Positions 5,861 through 57,729 of a DNA stretch of 57,729 nt are shown one piece after another. The stretch is from a virus (Duplodnaviria; Caudoviricetes). Position 1 is the first letter of the stretch. Each line of letters starts with the position of its first letter. The translations under genes were made by a program, and so were the position numbers. Location of the stretch: positions 1 through 57,729 of IMG/VR virus record IMGVR_UViG_3300008261_000142. One strand, written 5' to 3'. The notes below the pieces were generated by a model that did not search any database, was not told where the DNA came from, and was given only the letters and a program-made list of their open reading frames with translations.

Positions 5861-8800
5861 ACTGGGTACAGAGTAAGCGAAGCCTTTTCAGAAGTATAGG
5901 CTCCCTTGACGTGTGTCACTTCGATGATCCACGAACTCATCGTCTCAAGTCCAAGGTCTCCGCGATAGAGATCAGACATCACCACTTCGTTCTCTTCAGT
6001 GGTGAACACGGAGATCTTGTTGAGGGTTGTGCCGTTGATCAGGGTGACTTGGAAGTACCCTTGGACACCGCTGGTGCCTACTGCGTTCCCGAGAGGCTGC
6101 ATGCCGAGCCCCGTGTTCGGGAACTCGTTGCTCTCGTAGCACCAAACGATCTTGAGCTGGCCCCCGTAGGACGGGTAGCTTGTCTTGAACGTCTCGAGGC
6201 GCAGCCCTCCCGGCTTCATGGGAGTGAAAGCCTTGGCAGAGATCGTCGTTGTCTTGGCGTCGATCGCAGTGATGTCCGAGCTTCGAAGCATCGAACCTGC
6301 CTGTCCCTTGTAGTAGACCTGTACGCCGGCTGCGTAGATGAGCGATTTGGTCCCCGTGAGCCGGTAGTAGGGCACCACGTAGAACGGCGTTCCTACAGGG
6401 TACGAGGCGGGAGAGGTGCCAAAGCGGCCTCGGATCATTCCGACCAGCTCGTCAGGGTACCCGTTCTTCAAGAAGATGATCTCGTTGCCGATCAGCAACA
6501 GCTGGCGACCAGAACGCCATGCAGCGGCATCCAGAGTGAGGTCCTCGATGACAGCTAGGTCGGGTTGGTAGTCAGCCAGGATGCTGACCGGCTGTTCGTA
6601 GATCATCTCCGTAGTAGCAGGCAGCTCCTCGGCGAGCGTCCCTCGCACAGCGAGGATGCCATCGCCGAGGAAGCTGTAGGCGGTTCCGTCCCTCGAACCC
6701 CAGATAGCCGATTTGACAATCTTGGAACTGGGTCGCGAGGTCAGGAAGGCCACAGAGATCTCCGAGCCAAACGGAATCTCGAAGGCTTGGAAGTCCAGCA
6801 AAGCAGGCACGATCTCCGTAGAGCTCGGGGACGTTACCGGGAGGTCGTCCAGGCCTGGCGTGCTGTCCGTAAACTCGAGGAGAGGCGGGTTGTAGGTATC
6901 GACCATGGCCTCGATCTCGATCTTGCTCGAGTTGACGAAGCGACGGACGTTCATGATCAGGAACTGAAGGCCCTCGCCCTCGAATTCGCTGACCTTGAAA
7001 CGAGAACCCGGCACGGCCATCTGGCAGCCGTGGTTCATTTCGAAGTTGAAGCTGGAGAGGTTGGTGAGCCCTTCCTGCTGCCGGCGAGGGGCAATTCGAG
7101 AAATCGAGTCTCGGTCCTTGGTGATCTCGATCGGGACTTTCTGAGCCCTCTGAGTCTCGTACTCGGAGATCTGTCCGCTGTCGATCACCTTGATCGGCAC
7201 CTCTCGGTAGTTGCGATCACGGTCCTTGTAGGTGAACGCGACAACGTCGATCGGGCGGTCGCCCTGGACTGCCGTCATCGACGGTTCTTTGAGTACCAAG
7301 TCCTTGGGGATATCGAGGCCGGTTGCCTCGTATCGGATCAGTCGGAACACGTACTTTCCGACCGACACATCCCAAGCGATCATCAAGCCGGCGTCTTGGA
7401 GGATGGGGGAGAGTGCGCTCTCCAAGCCCTCGCCATCGAAGATGGCAATGCTGCCTCGAATCTTTTCCTTCTGCATCTGCTCTGCAGCTGCTTCGATCGA
7501 TCTGGTGTCGAACTTGCTGCGGTCGCGACCTGCTCCGTACGGGAACTTGGCGAACAGCAGCTGATCAATCATGTGGATTGGATTGACACCGTCGGTGCCC
7601 GTAGTGCTGCAGGGGCTTACGTAGCAAAAAATGCTGGGAGACGTTATTGCTCCAGAAACTCCCGGAGATCTCAGTACAGGGATACTGATATTTGAGTATG
7701 TTTGCTTGATATATTCGTCCAAAACCTCAGGCCCCAAAAATACTTCTAGGCATCCGCGAGTAGAAAGCGTACCAGCACTGGTTTGATTTTGCGTAAACGA
7801 AGTGGAGCTGTCCTGCACTGCTTTAGCAATCCAAAAATACTTCCATACATTGTTTTGATAAAATAGCCCAGGAAGGCGTGTATAGTCTAGGCAGTAGATT
7901 CCAATGATGCCTCCAGCAAAAATAATCTGATTTAAAGCTTCAATTCTTTGATTTGTGGGTGTTGGAAGTATGTCTGACCAAAGAACTCGAGTGTTGCTAG
8001 CAGGAGCACCCTGGCCGGTGTCCATGCAAAGTCTGTCTAGGACAGTTAACTTTCTTTCTAACTGTGTGTAAGAATAGGCCGACAAAATCATGGCACTATC
8101 ATCGCTGCCAGTCCAAGAACTTACAGGCCCAAAATTGCCTCCATATAGATTTCCGGCAAATATAAACCCGTTATGCAAATAGCCTTTTCTAGAGATTGGA
8201 GAATTGTTAATAGTGTCGTCGTACCATTCTTTATAAGAGGGCTTAGACTTATCTCCAACTAGAGGCGTCTCGAACGCCGATGAGGTGATCTCGCTGTAGC
8301 AAGGACATGTCACCTCGTATTCGAGACGAGGCCAATTTCGAGACTGTCCAAGATTCTTGTCTTCCCAGACAATCTTTGTTGCTAGCGGAAAACGGGTATC
8401 GACCGGCAGGCCAGAGATCACTGGGTCGTCTCTGAATCCCCAGTAGATGCGGAACGTTCCCTCAGACTGGCTGCTTCCTTGAGCGTTCTGAAGCGTGATT
8501 GAAGATCCCGAAGGGTGGCTGCCTGGCGAGATGTCGCCGCTCCAGATCAACTCGCCGTTCTGCCAGATGGCCGATAGCTTTGATGCAGGGCCTACGCAGA
8601 GAGCATGCACAGCACGCTCCCAGATCTGAGGCGGCTCGGGAACACCGCCTCCGCCCTTTCCCAGCTCAGGTGGGGTGTCTACCCCACCCCCAAGATCGGT
8701 GAATGCGGTGGCGTCCTCGACCCACAGAAACACGGGACCCACACGCTCACGACCGATGACCAGAGGGATGTAGGCCCCCATGGTCGCGCTAGAGCCCAAG

Positions 8801-21576: not shown

Positions 21577-22971
21577 CTACTTCCTCAAGGTGTCGGGGAC
21601 GATCTCGAATACAAAGGTTACAGTCGTCCCTCTGTTGGGTGACTGCTCTGGCGGGTGATCGTAATCACTATCGGCCAACCGTGCAAGCAACGCTCTCTGT
21701 TCTGGTGCGCCGATTGCTGGAGGAATCTTGATACCTACAGCAGTGGCTGCTTCCTCAAACTCTTCGCAAGCAACTTCTTCAGAGAATTGGACTCTGGCAT
21801 TCCAAAGCCACTGACTCAGTTCACCCGCGCCAAAGCTCCTCTTGTTGCGAAGTGCCTCTTTGAAAGATGAGCTGATTTCTTTGATCGAAACGCCTGTCGG
21901 CTTGATGTTTCGATCCACGTCGATTGTCATCTGGCCTGTCTTGGGGTTGATCGAACACGGGTAGTAAGGACCCGTCTTGATCAGAGCCAAGAGCGTGTTG
22001 TGGATGCGTTGCTTCATGAGGACCTTCTTGACAACTGTAACCTTTTGAGGAGTTACAGTTACCTGATAAATAACTGCTGCCGAGCTGCCCACAACAGCCA
22101 CGACACTCGAGGCAGAGGCAGTTACGCCAGAGATATCGGAAGCGTATCCAGTTACGACGACGATCGTCTGAGCGGTCGCTGTCGTGGATACCGAGGCAGC
22201 AGACGTTCCAGTAGTCGAAGCACTTCCCGAGGCACTTGCCGACACCGCTGCGCTTCCGGGCGCAGATGCAGAGCCGGTTACCGACGCTGTTCCGGATGCC
22301 TCGCAGTCGTAAGAGAACCGTCCGGAGACAGTGCCTGACGTGCTCGCATCACCGCTAGCGGTAGCGGTGATCGAGGACTGCCCCGTGGAACTGCCAGTCG
22401 TGTTGGCGTCACCGCTCGCGGTAGCGGTGATCGTAGATTGGCCGGATGAGCTGCCTGTAGTAGCTGCTTGTCCTGAAGCAGTGGCTACTAGGCCAGCATC
22501 GGCTACGGCTTCCGCACTGCCGGTCGTGTTCGCTTCACCGCTAGCGGTAGCGGTGATCGAAGACTGCCCCGTGGAGCTTCCGGTCGTGTTCGCGTCACCG
22601 CTTGCCGTAGCGGTGATCGAAGACTGCCCCGTGGAGCTTCCGGTCGTGTTCGCGTCACCGCTAGCGGTAGCGGTGATCGAGGACTGCCCCGTGGAACTGC
22701 CAGTCGTGTTCGCATCGCCGCTGGCAGTAGCGGTGATCGAGGACTGCCCCGTGGAGCTGCCAGTCGTGTTCGCGTCACCGCTGGCAGTGAAGATCGATAC
22801 TTCACCGATCTCAGCGTCGACCGCGGTGATCGCCGAGAGGGTCAGCGATGCCGAGACTAGGACCTCAGTAGTCGAGGATCCGGTTACGCCTACCGTTCCG
22901 GTAGCGGTGGCCGTCTGTGGCGCAGGCGGCTGCGCGGCAAAAGCCGCTGAACTGTGCCACAGAAACGACAT
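21577..22971 (-). CDS. Ser/Thr/Ala repeat protein fused to putative tail terminator
   Basis: 20-aa repeats, then a ~146-aa globular C-terminus just before the tail tube genes. Confidence 0.65.
   Translation of the reverse strand: MSFLWHSSAAFAAQPPAPQTATATGTVGVTGSSTTEVLVSASLTLSAITAVDAEIGEVSIFTASGDANTTGSSTGQSSITATASGDANTTGSSTGQSSITATASGDANTTGSSTGQSSITATASGDANTTGSSTGQSSITATASGEANTTGSAEAVADAGLVATASGQAATTGSSSGQSTITATASGDANTTGSSTGQSSITATASGDASTSGTVSGRFSYDCEASGTASVTGSASAPGSAAVSASASGSASTTGTSAASVSTTATAQTIVVVTGYASDISGVTASASSVVAVVGSSAAVIYQVTVTPQKVTVVKKVLMKQRIHNTLLALIKTGPYYPCSINPKTGQMTIDVDRNIKPTGVSIKEISSSFKEALRNKRSFGAGELSQWLWNARVQFSEEVACEEFEEAATAVGIKIPPAIGAPEQRALLARLADSDYDHPPEQSPNRGTTVTFVFEIVPDTLRK
22345..22790. 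repeat. 60-bp coding tandem repeat (ATASGDANTTGSSTGQSSIT)
   Basis: About 7-8 copies including degenerate ones. Confidence 0.9.
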
Positions 22972-51910: not shown

Positions 51911-52230
51911 AGGTAGTGGAAGTTGCGGAAGAGTTTTCCGGCGCGTGAGATGGCATCCTTGCCATGGAACTCTCGCACCCAGAAGTACTCGTCGACCCAG
52001 ACAGGGCCGACTCCGTCGATGAAGGCGATGTCGTCGCGCTCGAACATGTCTTCGGTCTGCTCTTCAGCCGGGACAGGGTCGCAGAAACGGGCGTGGTACT
52101 CTTCCCACGCTTCTTCTACGGTGCCGCCGACCTGCAGAAGCATCGGGCCGAACTGGCAGCCTACTACGTAGGCCAGGTCGGTTCGGAAACGGCTGGAGAT
52201 CTGGAGGTCTTTGTTCAAGAGTTTTGGCAT
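51907..52230 (-). CDS. hypothetical protein
   Basis: TAATG-coupled. Confidence 0.7.
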   Translation of the reverse strand: MPKLLNKDLQISSRFRTDLAYVVGCQFGPMLLQVGGTVEEAWEEYHARFCDPVPAEEQTEDMFERDDIAFIDGVGPVWVDEYFWVREFHGKDAISRAGKLFRNFHYL

Positions 52231-52457
52231 TACTGCACCTTGAGGAAGGCTGTCTTTTGCAGCCGGCTGTAGCGGATGCGGATCGTCTTCATGCCGATCT
52301 GGGCAAGCTCATCGATGTTGATGTACTTGCCGGAAGGCGTCATGAAGTCCAGCTTCTTGTCGAGGTCCGCCTGGGCTTGCTTGATGGTCGTGTAGTCACG
52401 ACCGTAGGCAGGCACCAGAGGCTCGAGACCACGAAGGTCGATTTCGTAGATGCTCAT
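52230..52457 (-). CDS. hypothetical protein directly downstream of HHR1
   Basis: LVPAYGRDY..DF..YINI; ATG abuts the ribozyme. Confidence 0.75.
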   Translation of the reverse strand: MSIYEIDLRGLEPLVPAYGRDYTTIKQAQADLDKKLDFMTPSGKYINIDELAQIGMKTIRIRYSRLQKTAFLKVQ

Positions 52458-52510
52458 GCGGTTTCGCCCTGCTGGGGCTCATCAGGCACCGAGCTATACG
52501 GTGCGACCGC
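52458..52510 (-). ncRNA. type III hammerhead ribozyme HHR1
   Basis: GCGGUC^GCACCG-UAUAGCU-CGGUGC CUGAUGA GCCC-CAGCA-GGGC GAAACCGC. Confidence 0.95.
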
Positions 52511-52753
52511 TCAGGAGGACTTCTCAAGCTGATCGGCAAGGTTGGCGATCAGGCCAGAGACGCCCATCAAGTGGCTGGCGTACACAGGATCGTGCTCGTC
52601 GTGTGTGTTGGCCTCGTATTCGATGTGTTGTGCCAGCTCGATGAGTTGCTTGACCGCTACGTCAAGCTCCTCCGTGTTCAGGTACTTGCGGCTGAGGTGG
52701 AGCTGGAAGAACAAGCCCGATGGCTGCCCTGAAGGCGTCGATTGGTCGGTCAT
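52511..52753 (-). CDS. hypothetical protein
   Basis: Stop abuts HHR1; start uncertain. Confidence 0.5.
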   Translation of the reverse strand: MTDQSTPSGQPSGLFFQLHLSRKYLNTEELDVAVKQLIELAQHIEYEANTHDEHDPVYASHLMGVSGLIANLADQLEKSS

Positions 52754-52880
52754 AGAGTTCTGTGGTTGAAGGGAACTGGCTCTTGCGAGCCACGGTGATG
52801 ACACCGCGCCACTTGTCGCGGTCTGGGATCACCGCGACTCGGTAGTTGCCGATGGTGGCTTTGTAGACTAGCTCGGGCAT
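52662..52880 (-). CDS. hypothetical protein
   Basis: GGAGA RBS; MPELVYKA. Confidence 0.5.
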   Translation of the reverse strand: MPELVYKATIGNYRVAVIPDRDKWRGVITVARKSQFPSTTELYDRPIDAFRAAIGLVLPAPPQPQVPEHGGA

Positions 52881-53098
52881 TCGAATGTCTCTCCGGTGAC
52901 GAAGTCTTGCGGATGGTCTCCGCAGTTGTCGCAGTAGAAGCACTCTTCAAAGTCTGCGAGCGAGCATGCTTCCATGAAGCCGGATTGCCAGCCGTCCCTG
53001 CGGACGAGCTGGAGATCGACGTACATGAAGGCCTTTTGCCGCAACACGCTGTTGCAGCTAGCACAAAGGTAGTGCTGAACTCGGTTTTGTGGGTCCAT
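52868..53098 (-). CDS. Zn-finger hypothetical protein
   Basis: CASC..CDNC; TGATG-coupled. Confidence 0.6.
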   Translation of the reverse strand: MDPQNRVQHYLCASCNSVLRQKAFMYVDLQLVRRDGWQSGFMEACSLADFEECFYCDNCGDHPQDFVTGETFECPS

Positions 53099-53262
53099 CA
53101 GGGAGTCCTGAGAACGATCTCGCAGATCGGTTCGTGGAGCCTGCAGATCCATAGGTAGCCGTGCTGTCCTTCCTTGGAGTTCTCGGCCTCTTCGACCGAG
53201 TCGAATGGTCCGACGAAGTCGAAGCCTGAGCCGATGTCTCCCATCACTAGTAGGTACTTCAT
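53098..53262 (-). CDS. 54-aa hypothetical protein (below the ORF-track cutoff)
   Basis: MKYLLVMGDIGSGFDFVGPFDSVEEAE..; ATGA and TGATG overlaps. Confidence 0.65.
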   Translation of the reverse strand: MKYLLVMGDIGSGFDFVGPFDSVEEAENSKEGQHGYLWICRLHEPICEIVLRTP

Positions 53263-53951
53263 GCGTGTTGTAGTTCATCGTGGTCGATGAACTCGATGGG
53301 GAGTTCGACGGACCAGCAGAGACCGCAAGTCAGACACGACTCGGTCTTGCCGGTTTGCTCGGGGCAGGTCACAGCACCGGGGACGGATCCCTGCGTGGTT
53401 GCGACGATCTGACCCTTGATGCGCTTGTTGGTGCTGAAGCGCACCCACCAGCGGTCAGGGAAGTCTTTTCGCATGTCGGTGAGGCACTTCCAGCCCTCAC
53501 GGGCGGTGTAGCCGTAGACATGCAGGTTGGTGTGTCGAACGATCAGCTTGCGCCACATCTTGACGTAGCCGTCGGAGTAGAAGTCGCCGAGGATGTGCAG
53601 GCGCACAGCGAAGCCGTGCGGATGCATCCGTGCGAGCTCGGCAACTTCGCTTTGGATCTTGGCCTCGAGTTCGGGGCCATGTTGGAACCGATGTGCGAAC
53701 GGCATTGAGTTGCCGTAGCACTCGGCCCATCTGAGGCAGGTAGACGGGCAGGTTGCTCGCTCTTCGAGCGTGATGCTGAAGAGTGGGAACCCGCGCCACC
53801 GACCCTTGAGGATGGTGCCCTTGCCCTTGCCGAGCTTGCTGTTGTTCGCAACCGGCTTGAGGACATCGCGGCTGTCATCGACAGTGCGACGGCCCTTCGG
53901 ATGGATCGTGCGAGCTTCGGCCAGAGCAGGGTTGCCTGGCTTGAGTTTCAT
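53259..53951 (-). CDS. GP88-family (radical-SAM-like) protein
   Basis: NSKLG, TCPSTC..CYG, RLHILGDFYS, YGYT, CP..C..CGLC. Confidence 0.8.
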   Translation of the reverse strand: MKLKPGNPALAEARTIHPKGRRTVDDSRDVLKPVANNSKLGKGKGTILKGRWRGFPLFSITLEERATCPSTCLRWAECYGNSMPFAHRFQHGPELEAKIQSEVAELARMHPHGFAVRLHILGDFYSDGYVKMWRKLIVRHTNLHVYGYTAREGWKCLTDMRKDFPDRWWVRFSTNKRIKGQIVATTQGSVPGAVTCPEQTGKTESCLTCGLCWSVELPIEFIDHDELQHA

Positions 53952-54004
53952 GCGGTTTCGCCCTGCTGGGGCTCATCAGTCGGCGCGATATACGCCGAGA
54001 CCGC
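53952..54004 (-). ncRNA. type III hammerhead ribozyme HHR2
   Basis: GCGGUC^UCGGCG-UAUAUCG-CGCCGA CUGAUGA GCCC-CAGCA-GGGC GAAACCGC. Confidence 0.95.
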
Positions 54005-54211
54005 TCAGTCATCACGCTCGATGCCAGTGAACTCTACAGATTCACGATCGAGCTCTTCGGATATGCTGACTGTTTCGGGGAAGATCATCTCTTCATGGAT
54101 GATCTTTCTTGCCTGTTCAAGAGTCAGGTTCGGGTTGTCGTGCTCGAAAGAATATTCGAGCTCTTCCCACACCCTGACTACGCGGCTGCCGTAGACGGTG
54201 TACTTGGGCAT
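54005..54211 (-). CDS. acidic hypothetical protein
   Basis: MPKYTVYG..; stop abuts HHR2. Confidence 0.7.
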   Translation of the reverse strand: MPKYTVYGSRVVRVWEELEYSFEHDNPNLTLEQARKIIHEEMIFPETVSISEELDRESVEFTGIERDD

Positions 54212-54420
54212 CAGCAGGCATCCTCCTCGGGCTGTCGTGAAGTGCTGTGGCGAGCGTGGCAATCGCGGAAGAACTGCGAGGACTTGCGGTAGATGTCCCT
54301 GAGCAGATCGACCGATTCCTTGTCTGCGATCAGGTACATCGTTTCCAGAGCAGCCCAGGCTGCGTTGGACAGAGCGATGCTCTGCTGGTACGCGATGGCG
54401 TACTTGGTCTTGTTTTCCAT
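54211..54420 (-). CDS. hypothetical protein downstream of HHR3
   Basis: MENKTKY..; TGATG-coupled to the next gene. Confidence 0.65.
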   Translation of the reverse strand: MENKTKYAIAYQQSIALSNAAWAALETMYLIADKESVDLLRDIYRKSSQFFRDCHARHSTSRQPEEDAC

Positions 54421-54422
54421 GT

Positions 54423-54475
54423 TCGGTTTCGCCCTTCTGGGGCTCATCAGCCGGCGGACTTTACGCCGGGACCGA
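54423..54475 (-). ncRNA. type III hammerhead ribozyme HHR3
   Basis: UCGGUC^CCGGCG-UAAAGUC-CGCCGG CUGAUGA GCCC-CAGAA-GGGC GAAACCGA. Confidence 0.95.
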
Positions 54476-54580
54476 GCACTGGTCCGCGCCGCAGTTGCGG
54501 CAACGGAACCAGTGCAGGTTGCCGAGCTGCCCTAGGAAGAACAGTTCGCCGTAGCAGTGCTTGCAGGTGTCAGGAGTCAT
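54461..54580 (-). CDS. 39-aa Zn-ribbon peptide overlapping HHR3
   Basis: MTPDTCKHCYGELFFLGQLGNLHWFRCRNCGADQCSVPA*. Confidence 0.7.
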   Translation of the reverse strand: MTPDTCKHCYGELFFLGQLGNLHWFRCRNCGADQCSVPA

Positions 54581-56196: not shown

Positions 56197-56858
56197 GAGA
56201 GTACGGTGGTACCGTAGCAGTCTCCATGCGAGTCGTTTTTGGCGAGCTCGCAGGATCGTCTAGGATCGACGATGGGGTAGGGGGGGCTATGGTGGGCCGT
56301 CCCTGTTGCCGATCGTCGATCCTAGCCAATGCCAGGCCGTCTACAAGACAGCCTTATGGAGGGATTCGAGTCGGTTGTTGCTGTTCGCAGAGGATTATTT
56401 GCCTTTGCGGGCAGAAACCGTTTTTCATTGCCGTTCGGTAAGCCCTTGTGAAACCTGGCTTTGTGAGAGTCAGGTCGAAAAAGGGCACTTTTGGCAAAAA
56501 TCCGTTACGCGAGGAGACATTTTTTGTGGAGAAATCCTCACATTTCCTCTTTTCAGTCGGAAATGTTTGTGCCTTTTACGGCAACCCCACCAAAAACATC
56601 TCCCGCGTAAGGGGGATTTGGGCACCTCTTATTTTCATTTTCGAAGAAATCGATGCAAACCCCACGGTTTACAAGGACTTACGACGAGCAATAAAAAAGG
56701 GGTACTTCCAAAAATCGATCGGCCTTTGTTTACAAGGACTTACGTCAAAAGTAGGGAAATCTTCTTTGCCCGAAAAGGTAAATGAAACCCTGGGCAATAA
56801 CTAACTTCCAGTACTCTCGGTTCGGTCCCCGTTAGGGTCCTCGATTTGCGAAAGAGTA

Positions 56859-56901
56859 GCTTTCGGAAAAACTAAGTATGTCACCTAGTTTTTCCGAAAG
56901 C
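56859..56901. repeat. perfect 16-bp inverted repeat with 11-bp spacer
   Basis: GCTTTCGGAAAAACTA-N11-TAGTTTTTCCGAAAGC. Confidence 0.9.
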
Positions 56902-56926: not shown

Positions 56927-57136
56927 TCAGTCCTTCGGATTGACAGCGAACAATCGCTGGTCAACGTGGTCCATGAGGGACAGGATCTTGTCCTGCGCGT
57001 TGAAGAGGTCCTTGCGGATTTGGGAGACCTGGTCCACGAAATCGGAAGTCGACGGGCATGGCGTGACCATGATCGTCAGCTTCTGGATCGTGACCAGGTC
57101 GTCGTGCAGCATTTGCTGCAGTCGGATCGGGGTCAT
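56927..57136 (-). CDS. hypothetical protein downstream of HHR4
   Basis: AAGGAG RBS; MTPIRLQQ. Confidence 0.7.
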   Translation of the reverse strand: MTPIRLQQMLHDDLVTIQKLTIMVTPCPSTSDFVDQVSQIRKDLFNAQDKILSLMDHVDQRLFAVNPKD

Positions 57137-57150
57137 GTCTCTGTCTCCTT

Positions 57151-57205
57151 GCGGTTTCGTCCTTGGCTGGGACTCGTCAGTACGTGGCACCACCACGTAG
57201 ACCGC
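57151..57205 (-). ncRNA. type III hammerhead ribozyme HHR4
   Basis: GCGGUC^UACGUGG-UGGUG-CCACGUA CUGACGA GUCC-CAGCCAA-GGAC GAAACCGC. Confidence 0.93.
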
Positions 57206-57615: not shown

Positions 57616-57729
57616 TTTTGTATTCCGGAAATCGAAGCCTCGATTTTCGGAATGTACCAGGTTTGTAACATTTCTGTCATTCCGGAAATCGATGCTTCGA
57701 TTTTCGAAATGTACCAGGTTTGTAACATT
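57616..57729. repeat. terminal direct repeat, right copy
   Basis: Identical to 1-114. Confidence 0.95.

Follow-up and report, generated by a model that had tools for sequence, protein, structure and literature searches.

Clusters of hammerhead ribozymes (HHRs) in phage genomes were described by Perreault et al. 2011 (PMC3088659), whose text reports that they flank prophage genes and proposes that they process polycistronic RNA. According to the same text, three such clusters cleave in vitro and in vivo, while ligation or circularisation was raised and not detected. In the virus record IMGVR_UViG_3300008261_000142 (Caudoviricetes), whose 57,729 nucleotides (nt) are the whole stretch of DNA analysed here (the window), we found four type III HHRs, all in the same orientation and within 4.8 kb of a complete phage genome. 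They resemble the clusters of Perreault et al. in their common orientation, in their spacing of a few kb and in bracketing single genes or short blocks. The difference is at the junctions with the genes, since in two places the stop codon of one gene and the start codon of its neighbour leave room for the ribozyme alone. The text of that paper, where the terms 'Shine-Dalgarno' and 'ribosome binding' are absent and 'start codon' appears only for the HHphage element and a human gene, contains no account of stop-ribozyme-start junctions with zero spacer; its supplementary figures and alignments may show junctions.

Other described systems share part of this arrangement. HHphage, from the haloviruses HF1 and HF2, is a hammerhead just before the first open reading frame (ORF) of an early polycistronic transcript, with a 5' end mapped at most 3 nt from the cleavage site, but it lies 13 nt before the start codon and is a high-Mg variant belonging to an archaeal virus (PMC3088659). 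RiboJ is also a hammerhead placed before a gene, where the upstream RNA is cut off and the product starts with a hairpin, and the available text of Clifton et al. 2018 (PMC6206723) gives increases of 2-10 fold for protein and about 2 fold for transcript. It differs in being synthetic, with an added hairpin and a normal ribosome binding site downstream, and its start codon is untouched. Hammerhead aptazymes with the Shine-Dalgarno (SD) sequence inside a ribozyme stem switch genes on upon cleavage, so that, as is proposed here, self-cleavage frees a translation-initiation element from the ribozyme helix that contains it; as described there, they are synthetic type I ribozymes, ligand-controlled, with the SD masked in stem I (PMC7445771), whereas HHR1, HHR2 and HHR3 are natural type III ribozymes with the AUG itself against stem III and no strong SD. 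Self-cleavage in the 5' region of glmS likewise leaves a 5'-OH on the coding fragment, but in the account consulted this end triggers decay by RNase J1 (PMC3997798), so any effect on stability would depend on the host nucleases and on the pairing of the 5' end. A 2021 methods paper notes, in the part available, that the function of self-cleaving ribozymes is known in few cases (PMC8782182).

In the full-text literature we found no description of a natural hammerhead abutting, or paired with, a start codon or SD, bearing in mind that the supplements of Perreault et al. may hold such junctions. Hammerheads and their phage clusters are thus known, and what appears to be new is the zero-spacer stop-ribozyme-start junction without a strong SD, together with the recurrence of starts at or inside stem III. 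We tentatively suggest that the flush junction is a natural, portable, SD-free start module activated by cleavage, the phage counterpart of RiboJ and of the SD-masking aptazymes, a reading that we consider possible but short of an even chance. Since 2011 it has been asked what the hundreds of hammerheads in phages do, and this genome is an unusually clean test case, with HHR4, which bears an SD, as an internal control. If the start-module reading is true, phage hammerheads gain a defined job in translation control. Should cleavage be needed for translation, they would be modules for translation start and mRNA ends instead of mere 'scissors', and the RiboJ and aptazyme designs would gain a natural precedent; should it not be needed, the junctions show how far a phage genome can be compacted around structured RNA.

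A preliminary description of this stretch had claimed that the ribozymes fill the whole intergenic space, that the ATG abuts stem III and that no SD is present except at HHR4. Read from the sequence, HHR1 and HHR2 are both TGA-[53 nt]-ATG with zero spare bases, and the gap between HHR3 and its ATG is, as had been stated, 2 nt (AC) (Table 1). The description is thus confirmed, with a refinement of the first claim at HHR3, which exceeds the gap and overlaps the end of the upstream ORF. As for the SD, only HHR4 has AAGGAG and the other three have no strong motif, but weak SD-like sequences occur 10-11 nt ahead of the AUG, on the 3' strand of stem II: AGGG in HHR1 and HHR2, AAGGG in HHR3. Their energies against the anti-SD (-3.9 kcal/mol in HHR1 and HHR2, -4.5 in HHR3, versus -8.5 in HHR4) are at background level, with 25% of random positions reaching -4 kcal/mol or lower. 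HHR1, HHR2 and HHR4 have the same stem III (GCGGUC/ACCGC), whereas of the 6 stem I pairs 5 covary; HHR2 has stems III and II like those of HHR1 and a stem I that differs by compensatory changes. HHR1 and HHR2 also have common flanks, CTGA...ATGA. Beyond the helix, at both sites, the G and U of the stop could form wobble pairs with the U and G of the start past an A/A mismatch, and at HHR3, past a C/A mismatch, three more pairs can lengthen stem III, with the A and U of the ATG among the paired bases.

Table 1. Ribozymes, adjoining sequences and flanking genes in the window (aa, amino acids; bp, base pairs).
Feature	Position	Strand	Details
HHR1	52510..52458	-	53 nt; C17 at 52505, cleavage between 52505 and 52504; stem III GCGGU/ACCGC, stem I 6 bp, stem II 4 bp
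HHR2	54004..53952	-	53 nt; C17 at 53999
HHR3	54475..54423	-	C17 at 54470; followed by AC, then ATG 54420-54418
HHR4	57205..57151	-	55 nt; C17 at 57200; begins 8 nt after the upstream TGA
Sequence downstream of HHR4	57150-57134	-	AAGGAG (57150-57145), 8-nt spacer, ATG at 57136
80-aa ORF, upstream of HHR1	52753..52511	-	TGA 52513-52511 adjoins the first base of HHR1
75-aa ORF, downstream of HHR1	52457..52230	-	ATG 52457-52455 adjoins the last base of HHR1
68-aa ORF, upstream of HHR2	54211..54005	-	own AGGAGG; TGA 54007-54005 adjoins HHR2
230-aa GP88-family ORF, downstream of HHR2	53951..53259	-	PF17338, 34.1 bits; ATG 53951-53949 adjoins HHR2
39-aa CxxC...CxxC ORF, upstream of HHR3	54580..54461	-	TAA 54463-54461
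69-aa ORF, downstream of HHR3	54420..54211	-	starts 2 nt past HHR3
69-aa ORF, downstream of HHR4	57136..56927	-	AAGGAG and 8-nt spacer before the ATG

Judged by their sequences and modelled folds, the four HHRs are genuine type III hammerheads of a known kind. A structure-aware descriptor scan of both strands of the genome returned exactly these four sites. All of them have the full core, with CUGANGA, GAAA, the A15.1-U16.1 pair and GUC (H17) at the cleavage site; the core of HHR4 is CUGACGAG, where the C at position 7 occupies a free position. The minimum free energy (MFE) fold of each ribozyme alone is the canonical three-way junction, in which loops cap stems I and II and stem III is left open (-21.7, -22.8, -20.6 and -19.5 kcal/mol for HHR1 to HHR4). 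In the alignment of the four copies, 60 of 60 cells are paired and 7 of 15 pairs are altered on both sides in a compensatory way. None of 500 shuffles matched the observed paired share or covariation score, only 1-2 of 500 matched the counts of compensatory pairs, compensatory cells or pair types, and every slid control collapses. A loose core pattern has 6 matches in the genome (three sites, each found twice, nested) against 1.18 expected, a number reached in 0 of 100 shuffles. Scores against the Rfam model RF00008 (Hammerhead_3) are 46.7 bits for HHR3, 43.0 for HHR2, 37.2 for HHR1 and 22.2 for HHR4, with E-values over 7.7 kb of 5e-8, 6e-7, 2.5e-5 and 0.46, respectively; within the genome the E-values range from 9e-11 to 8e-4 (9e-11 to 4e-8 for three of the copies). 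Fast cleavage at cellular Mg requires a tertiary contact between loops I and II; exact-core scans found the stem II/loop II sequence CCCCAGNAGGG again in 3 viral stretches and 18 from metagenomes, which is no more than a hint of constraint.

The minus strand carries nearly all long ORFs of the genome, and the HHR region corresponds to the early region, read from high to low coordinates. We infer that the HHRs cut early polycistronic RNAs of the phage. A scan of the minus strand from 56196 to 52000 gave only one terminator-like site, a weak one (55950-55937, 5 pairs), and for this reason HHR3, HHR2 and HHR1 probably lie in one long RNA, where two genes lie between HHR3 and HHR2 and five between HHR2 and HHR1. 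The fragment from HHR2 to HHR1 measures 1494 nt. After the HHR4 gene pair comes a terminator-like 20-bp hairpin (56901-56859). With this hairpin starts a stretch of about 700 nt (56200-56900, minus strand) that is richer in AT, contains a repeated GTAAGTCCTTGTAAAC motif and no convincing ORF, and separates the HHR4 gene pair from the next operon.

The 30S ribosomal subunit needs mRNA that is single-stranded near the P site in order to bind, and a hammerhead that cleaves leaves one product with a 2',3'-cyclic phosphate and the other with a 5'-OH. At HHR1-3 the downstream start codon is stacked on stem III and, at HHR3 and to a lesser degree at HHR1 and HHR2, may be partly engaged in a continuation of that helix; in the mechanism that we propose, the 30S subunit could therefore not seat the AUG before stem III opens. 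Either cleavage or an upstream ribosome that terminates would open the helix and free the start, the reading that we favour, at about even odds. Self-cleavage after C17 would do so irreversibly: the 6-nt 5' strand would depart with the upstream mRNA as ...UGA-GCGGUC, ending in the cyclic phosphate, and the downstream mRNA would be left with a 9-nt single-stranded leader, CGAAACCGC, before the AUG. From then on, initiation would either do without an SD or use the weak one. As long as the RNA is uncut, the same helix would be opened transiently by ribosomes that terminate at the flush UGA. The new 5'-OH nucleotide would be the first base pair of the stem I hairpin, leaving no single-stranded 5' tail for nucleases that depend on the 5' end. 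In this way, a cistron that had been masked or coupled would become an mRNA of its own with a protected end, and unmasking would be expected to raise both translation and stability.

The preliminary description had also held that the downstream RNA would begin with a 5'-OH plus a hairpin, and the structural premise of that idea agrees with the sequence, in which the predicted 3' product begins at the first base pair of the stem I hairpin. In the 70 nt that run up to the cleavage site, HHR1 (z = -2.5) and HHR3 (z = -3.7) show unusually strong structure. A general protective hairpin at the 3' terminus of the 5' products was considered and rejected, as no significant structure appears for HHR2 (z +0.5) or HHR4 (z +1.7). 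A GC-rich hairpin just 5' of the hammerhead was observed in the window at 54480-54520 (minus strand) and at many other loci (L026, L029, L032 and L083 among them), and it would terminate the upstream fragment.

Several observations weigh against a start module activated by cleavage. We modelled accessibility as the ViennaRNA unpaired probability of positions -12 to -1 before and after cleavage, and it rose at HHR2 (from 0.27 to 0.49) but was unchanged at HHR1 (0.48 to 0.47) and HHR3 (0.62 to 0.63). The claim that cleavage frees the start is partly supported: its geometrical part, an AUG stacked on a stem III whose 5' strand departs, holds, and the modelled accessibility is equivocal. For a 193-nt HHR1 precursor, the MFE structure differs from the hammerhead fold. 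Termination by an upstream ribosome would likewise open stem III, with no cut at all. Only 35-50% of the genes of the phage, with crude gene calls, reach SD energies of -4 to -5 kcal/mol or lower, versus 19-25% for the background; with so few strong SDs genome-wide, a start without one is not unusual in this phage. Given their common flanks, the flush junctions of HHR1 and HHR2 may represent one duplicated cassette and not two independent events, even though 5 of the 6 pairs in stem I have since covaried around an unchanged stem III. Two relatives of the GP88-family gene (L005 and L006, 41-44% identity) have no hammerhead. At HHR3, the codons UCG GUC CCG GCG UAA of the upstream 39-aa ORF traverse stem III, the cleavage site and stem I, with the last five codons and the TAA inside the ribozyme and the TAA in loop I, 3' of the cleavage site. 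Cleavage there would strip this ORF of its stop and last two codons and create a non-stop message, which argues that it is costly, or slow relative to translation. As the source on glmS indicates, a 5'-OH made by a ribozyme promotes decay in hosts with RNase J1 (PMC3997798). Finally, the default Rfam scan reported no hammerhead because all four scores fall below the 48.5-bit gathering cut-off.

For comparison, we analysed hammerheads from an exact-core scan of IMG/VR, a relaxed-core scan (at least 119 stretches) and an exact-core scan of JGI metagenomes (18 stretches). Loci L007-L146 gave at least 69 distinct type III HHRs, 63 of them with a downstream ORF of at least 40 aa initiated by ATG. 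Among these 63 listed matches, 3 have 0-2 nt between the end of stem III and the ATG (L033 twice, L082 once) and 1 has 3-7 nt; the distance is 8-27 nt for 44 and greater for the other 15. An SD-like 4-mer starts within the 3' strand of stem III, or at most 2 nt past it, in 9 of the 63, and the four ribozymes of L136 read ...ACCCU|GGAGGA.... Phage hammerheads thus seem usually to end at the 5' edge of the ribosome-binding region, and these comparative data fit a link between HHRs and translation starts. A stop-side flush junction was seen only in the window; elsewhere, among the matches listed, a spacer precedes the ribozyme, often with a GC hairpin. In the metagenome stretches L131, L133 and L146, tandem hammerhead-like cores lie 171 nt apart, with stem II shared and stems I and III weak. 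These repeats look like satellite-type sequences and not like phage operons.

A targeted scan for abutting HHRs (38 stretches) gave 13 further ribozymes at most 3 nt from the ATG of an ORF with 40 aa or more, although in 3 of them (L170 and two in L180) a second ATG behind GGAG is more convincing. In L148, L157 and L174, which form one lineage, the ATG is paired inside an 8-bp stem III. L082 (5960-6050) and L148 (minus orientation, 6470-6570) have the upstream gene, the GC hairpin and the ribozyme in common, but the ribozyme of L082 abuts an 87-aa ORF while that of L148 abuts the gene that comes next along in L082 (MTQIQK versus MTTIQK). This would make the HHR a portable element that can be placed before different genes. 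In L161, L165, L149 and L148 (with CUGAUGAG at positions 786, 4293, 676 and 6534 of the oriented loci), loop II and the 3' strand of stem II contain the SD-like sequences GGAGGG, GGGAGGG, AAAGGGGG and AAGGGG, respectively, about 8-12 nt before the ATG. These are the 4 of 16 abutting HHRs that reach -7.6 kcal/mol or lower against the anti-SD, beyond all 61 non-abutting ones. As a general property of abutting HHRs, a stem II doubling as SD was rejected, the overall difference not being significant (one-sided Mann-Whitney p = 0.066) and the three ribozymes of the window being ordinary.

The four motifs might be inactive relics or chance matches, which we find scarcely credible. The low Rfam scores speak for it, above all the 22 bits of HHR4, yet every core position is present, all cells of the alignment are paired with compensatory changes, each copy has the canonical MFE fold, and the loose pattern occurs in excess of expectation and of all shuffles. 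A more serious competitor is processing alone, in which the HHRs cut the early RNA into gene-block mRNAs of differing lifetimes, the next gene is translated independently of cleavage and the flush junctions reflect compaction. This would be in line with the operon-length or gene-length mRNAs that the text of Perreault et al. 2011 proposes for gene-flanking clusters (PMC3088659), with the two-gene and five-gene blocks bracketed here, with the tight packing of the phage genes, many of them without an SD, and with the equivocal accessibility modelling. It accounts poorly for the spacer lengths, since among the matches listed gaps of 0-2 nt are rare (3/63) and a dip at 3-7 nt (1/63) replaces the smooth tail of compaction. 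Moreover, the pairing of the L148 ATG within stem III can hardly be called neutral, and a helix touching the AUG must hinder binding of the 30S subunit. On balance, we regard processing alone as rather unlikely.

An alternative that accepts the masking of the start is translational coupling or attenuation, where ribosomes terminating at the flush UGA unfold the ribozyme and re-initiate, and cleavage ends the coupling and lowers the output of the downstream gene or of the upstream one, as with the non-stop ORF at HHR3. The stop and start codons do lie at opposite ends of one helix, many other SD-less genes of the phage overlap the preceding stop (ATGA, TGATG), and the stop of the ORF upstream of HHR3 is 3' of the cleavage site. 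However, 53 nt is long for re-initiation, and flush stops are not general, as the majority of the other loci have their upstream stop tens of nt off and separated from the ribozyme by a hairpin; coupling as the main function is improbable. As a bolder extension of the start-module reading, the identical stem III strands of HHR1, HHR2 and HHR4 could let any 5' product pair with any 3' product, and ligation might then give circular, rearranged or 'spliced' RNAs in which TGA-ribozyme-ATG is recreated. That stem III does not vary in 3 of the 4 copies, against covariation of 5 of the 6 pairs in stem I, would suit this idea, but the ends are held by only 5 bp and the hammerhead equilibrium favours cleavage. 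No joints were seen among the DNA contigs of the phage, a comparison that covered DNA only. In the text of Perreault et al. 2011 the possibility was raised for clusters, and this one study that looked found no product (PMC3088659). We consider ligation very improbable.

The start codons themselves can be judged to some extent from the flanking genes. In the GP88-family gene, no start codon in frame comes between the ATG at 53951 and the in-frame stop before it, which, read by hand, is the UGAUGA of the HHR2 core, 8-9 codons upstream. The same UGAUGA, in the CUGAUGAG core, forms tandem stops in the frame of the downstream gene at both HHR1 (52482-52485) and HHR2 (53976-53979). Homology of the GP88-family protein to its two relatives begins at residue 3; the position of the Met is left unfixed by them, as their reading frames stay open far upstream. 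The 75-aa product encoded after HHR1 has a sole homologue cluster, 93% identical and equal in length, and the 69-aa product after HHR3 has one homologue, 82% identical and also equal in length, which gives weak support to both starts. In HHR3, an AUG within CUGAUGAG is in frame with the 69-aa ORF and would extend the product by 9 residues, and it may be an alternative start of this gene. The zinc-ribbon-like 39-aa ORF has 4 differences in a variant contig, 2 synonymous and 2 conservative (read by hand). Upstream of HHR1, a 72-aa ORF (52880..52662, minus strand) and the 80-aa ORF overlap by 92 nt in different frames (52662-52753), the product of a miscalled start or stop or a true overlap.

The record represents a whole virus with direct terminal repeats and an estimated completeness of 100%. 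PHROG matches include tape measure, tail proteins, major head protein, DNA polymerase, helicases, primase and exonuclease. The major head protein is less than 30% identical to its counterparts in cultured phages, and blastn against cultured phages gave a single irrelevant match of 230 nt. Hosts are mostly Proteobacteria among the 15 listed of 140 matching records, and a tally of names over all 140 mainly agrees; a proteobacterial host is weakly indicated. The exact hammerhead core had 0 matches in a search of genome contigs. Nearly identical fragments of the phage are present in freshwater and lake metagenomes from several studies. In four freshwater DNA runs, fragments at least 99% identical have ribozyme interiors without any difference; being invariant among near-identical fragments, these interiors give no measure of selection. 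Metagenome contigs of the phage often end at the ribozymes, and the repeated sequence of the latter may be the cause of these breaks.

The terminal repeat has 114 nt (1-114 equals 57616-57729) and is made of 57-nt tandem units (1-171 and 57616-57729 of the window), of which there are three on the circular map. These units adjoin the first early gene on its upstream side, and the repeat overlaps the only sigma-70-like promoter match. Another tandem repeat, with six copies spaced by 60 nt, was found at 22269-22827, within a large ORF of the minus strand.

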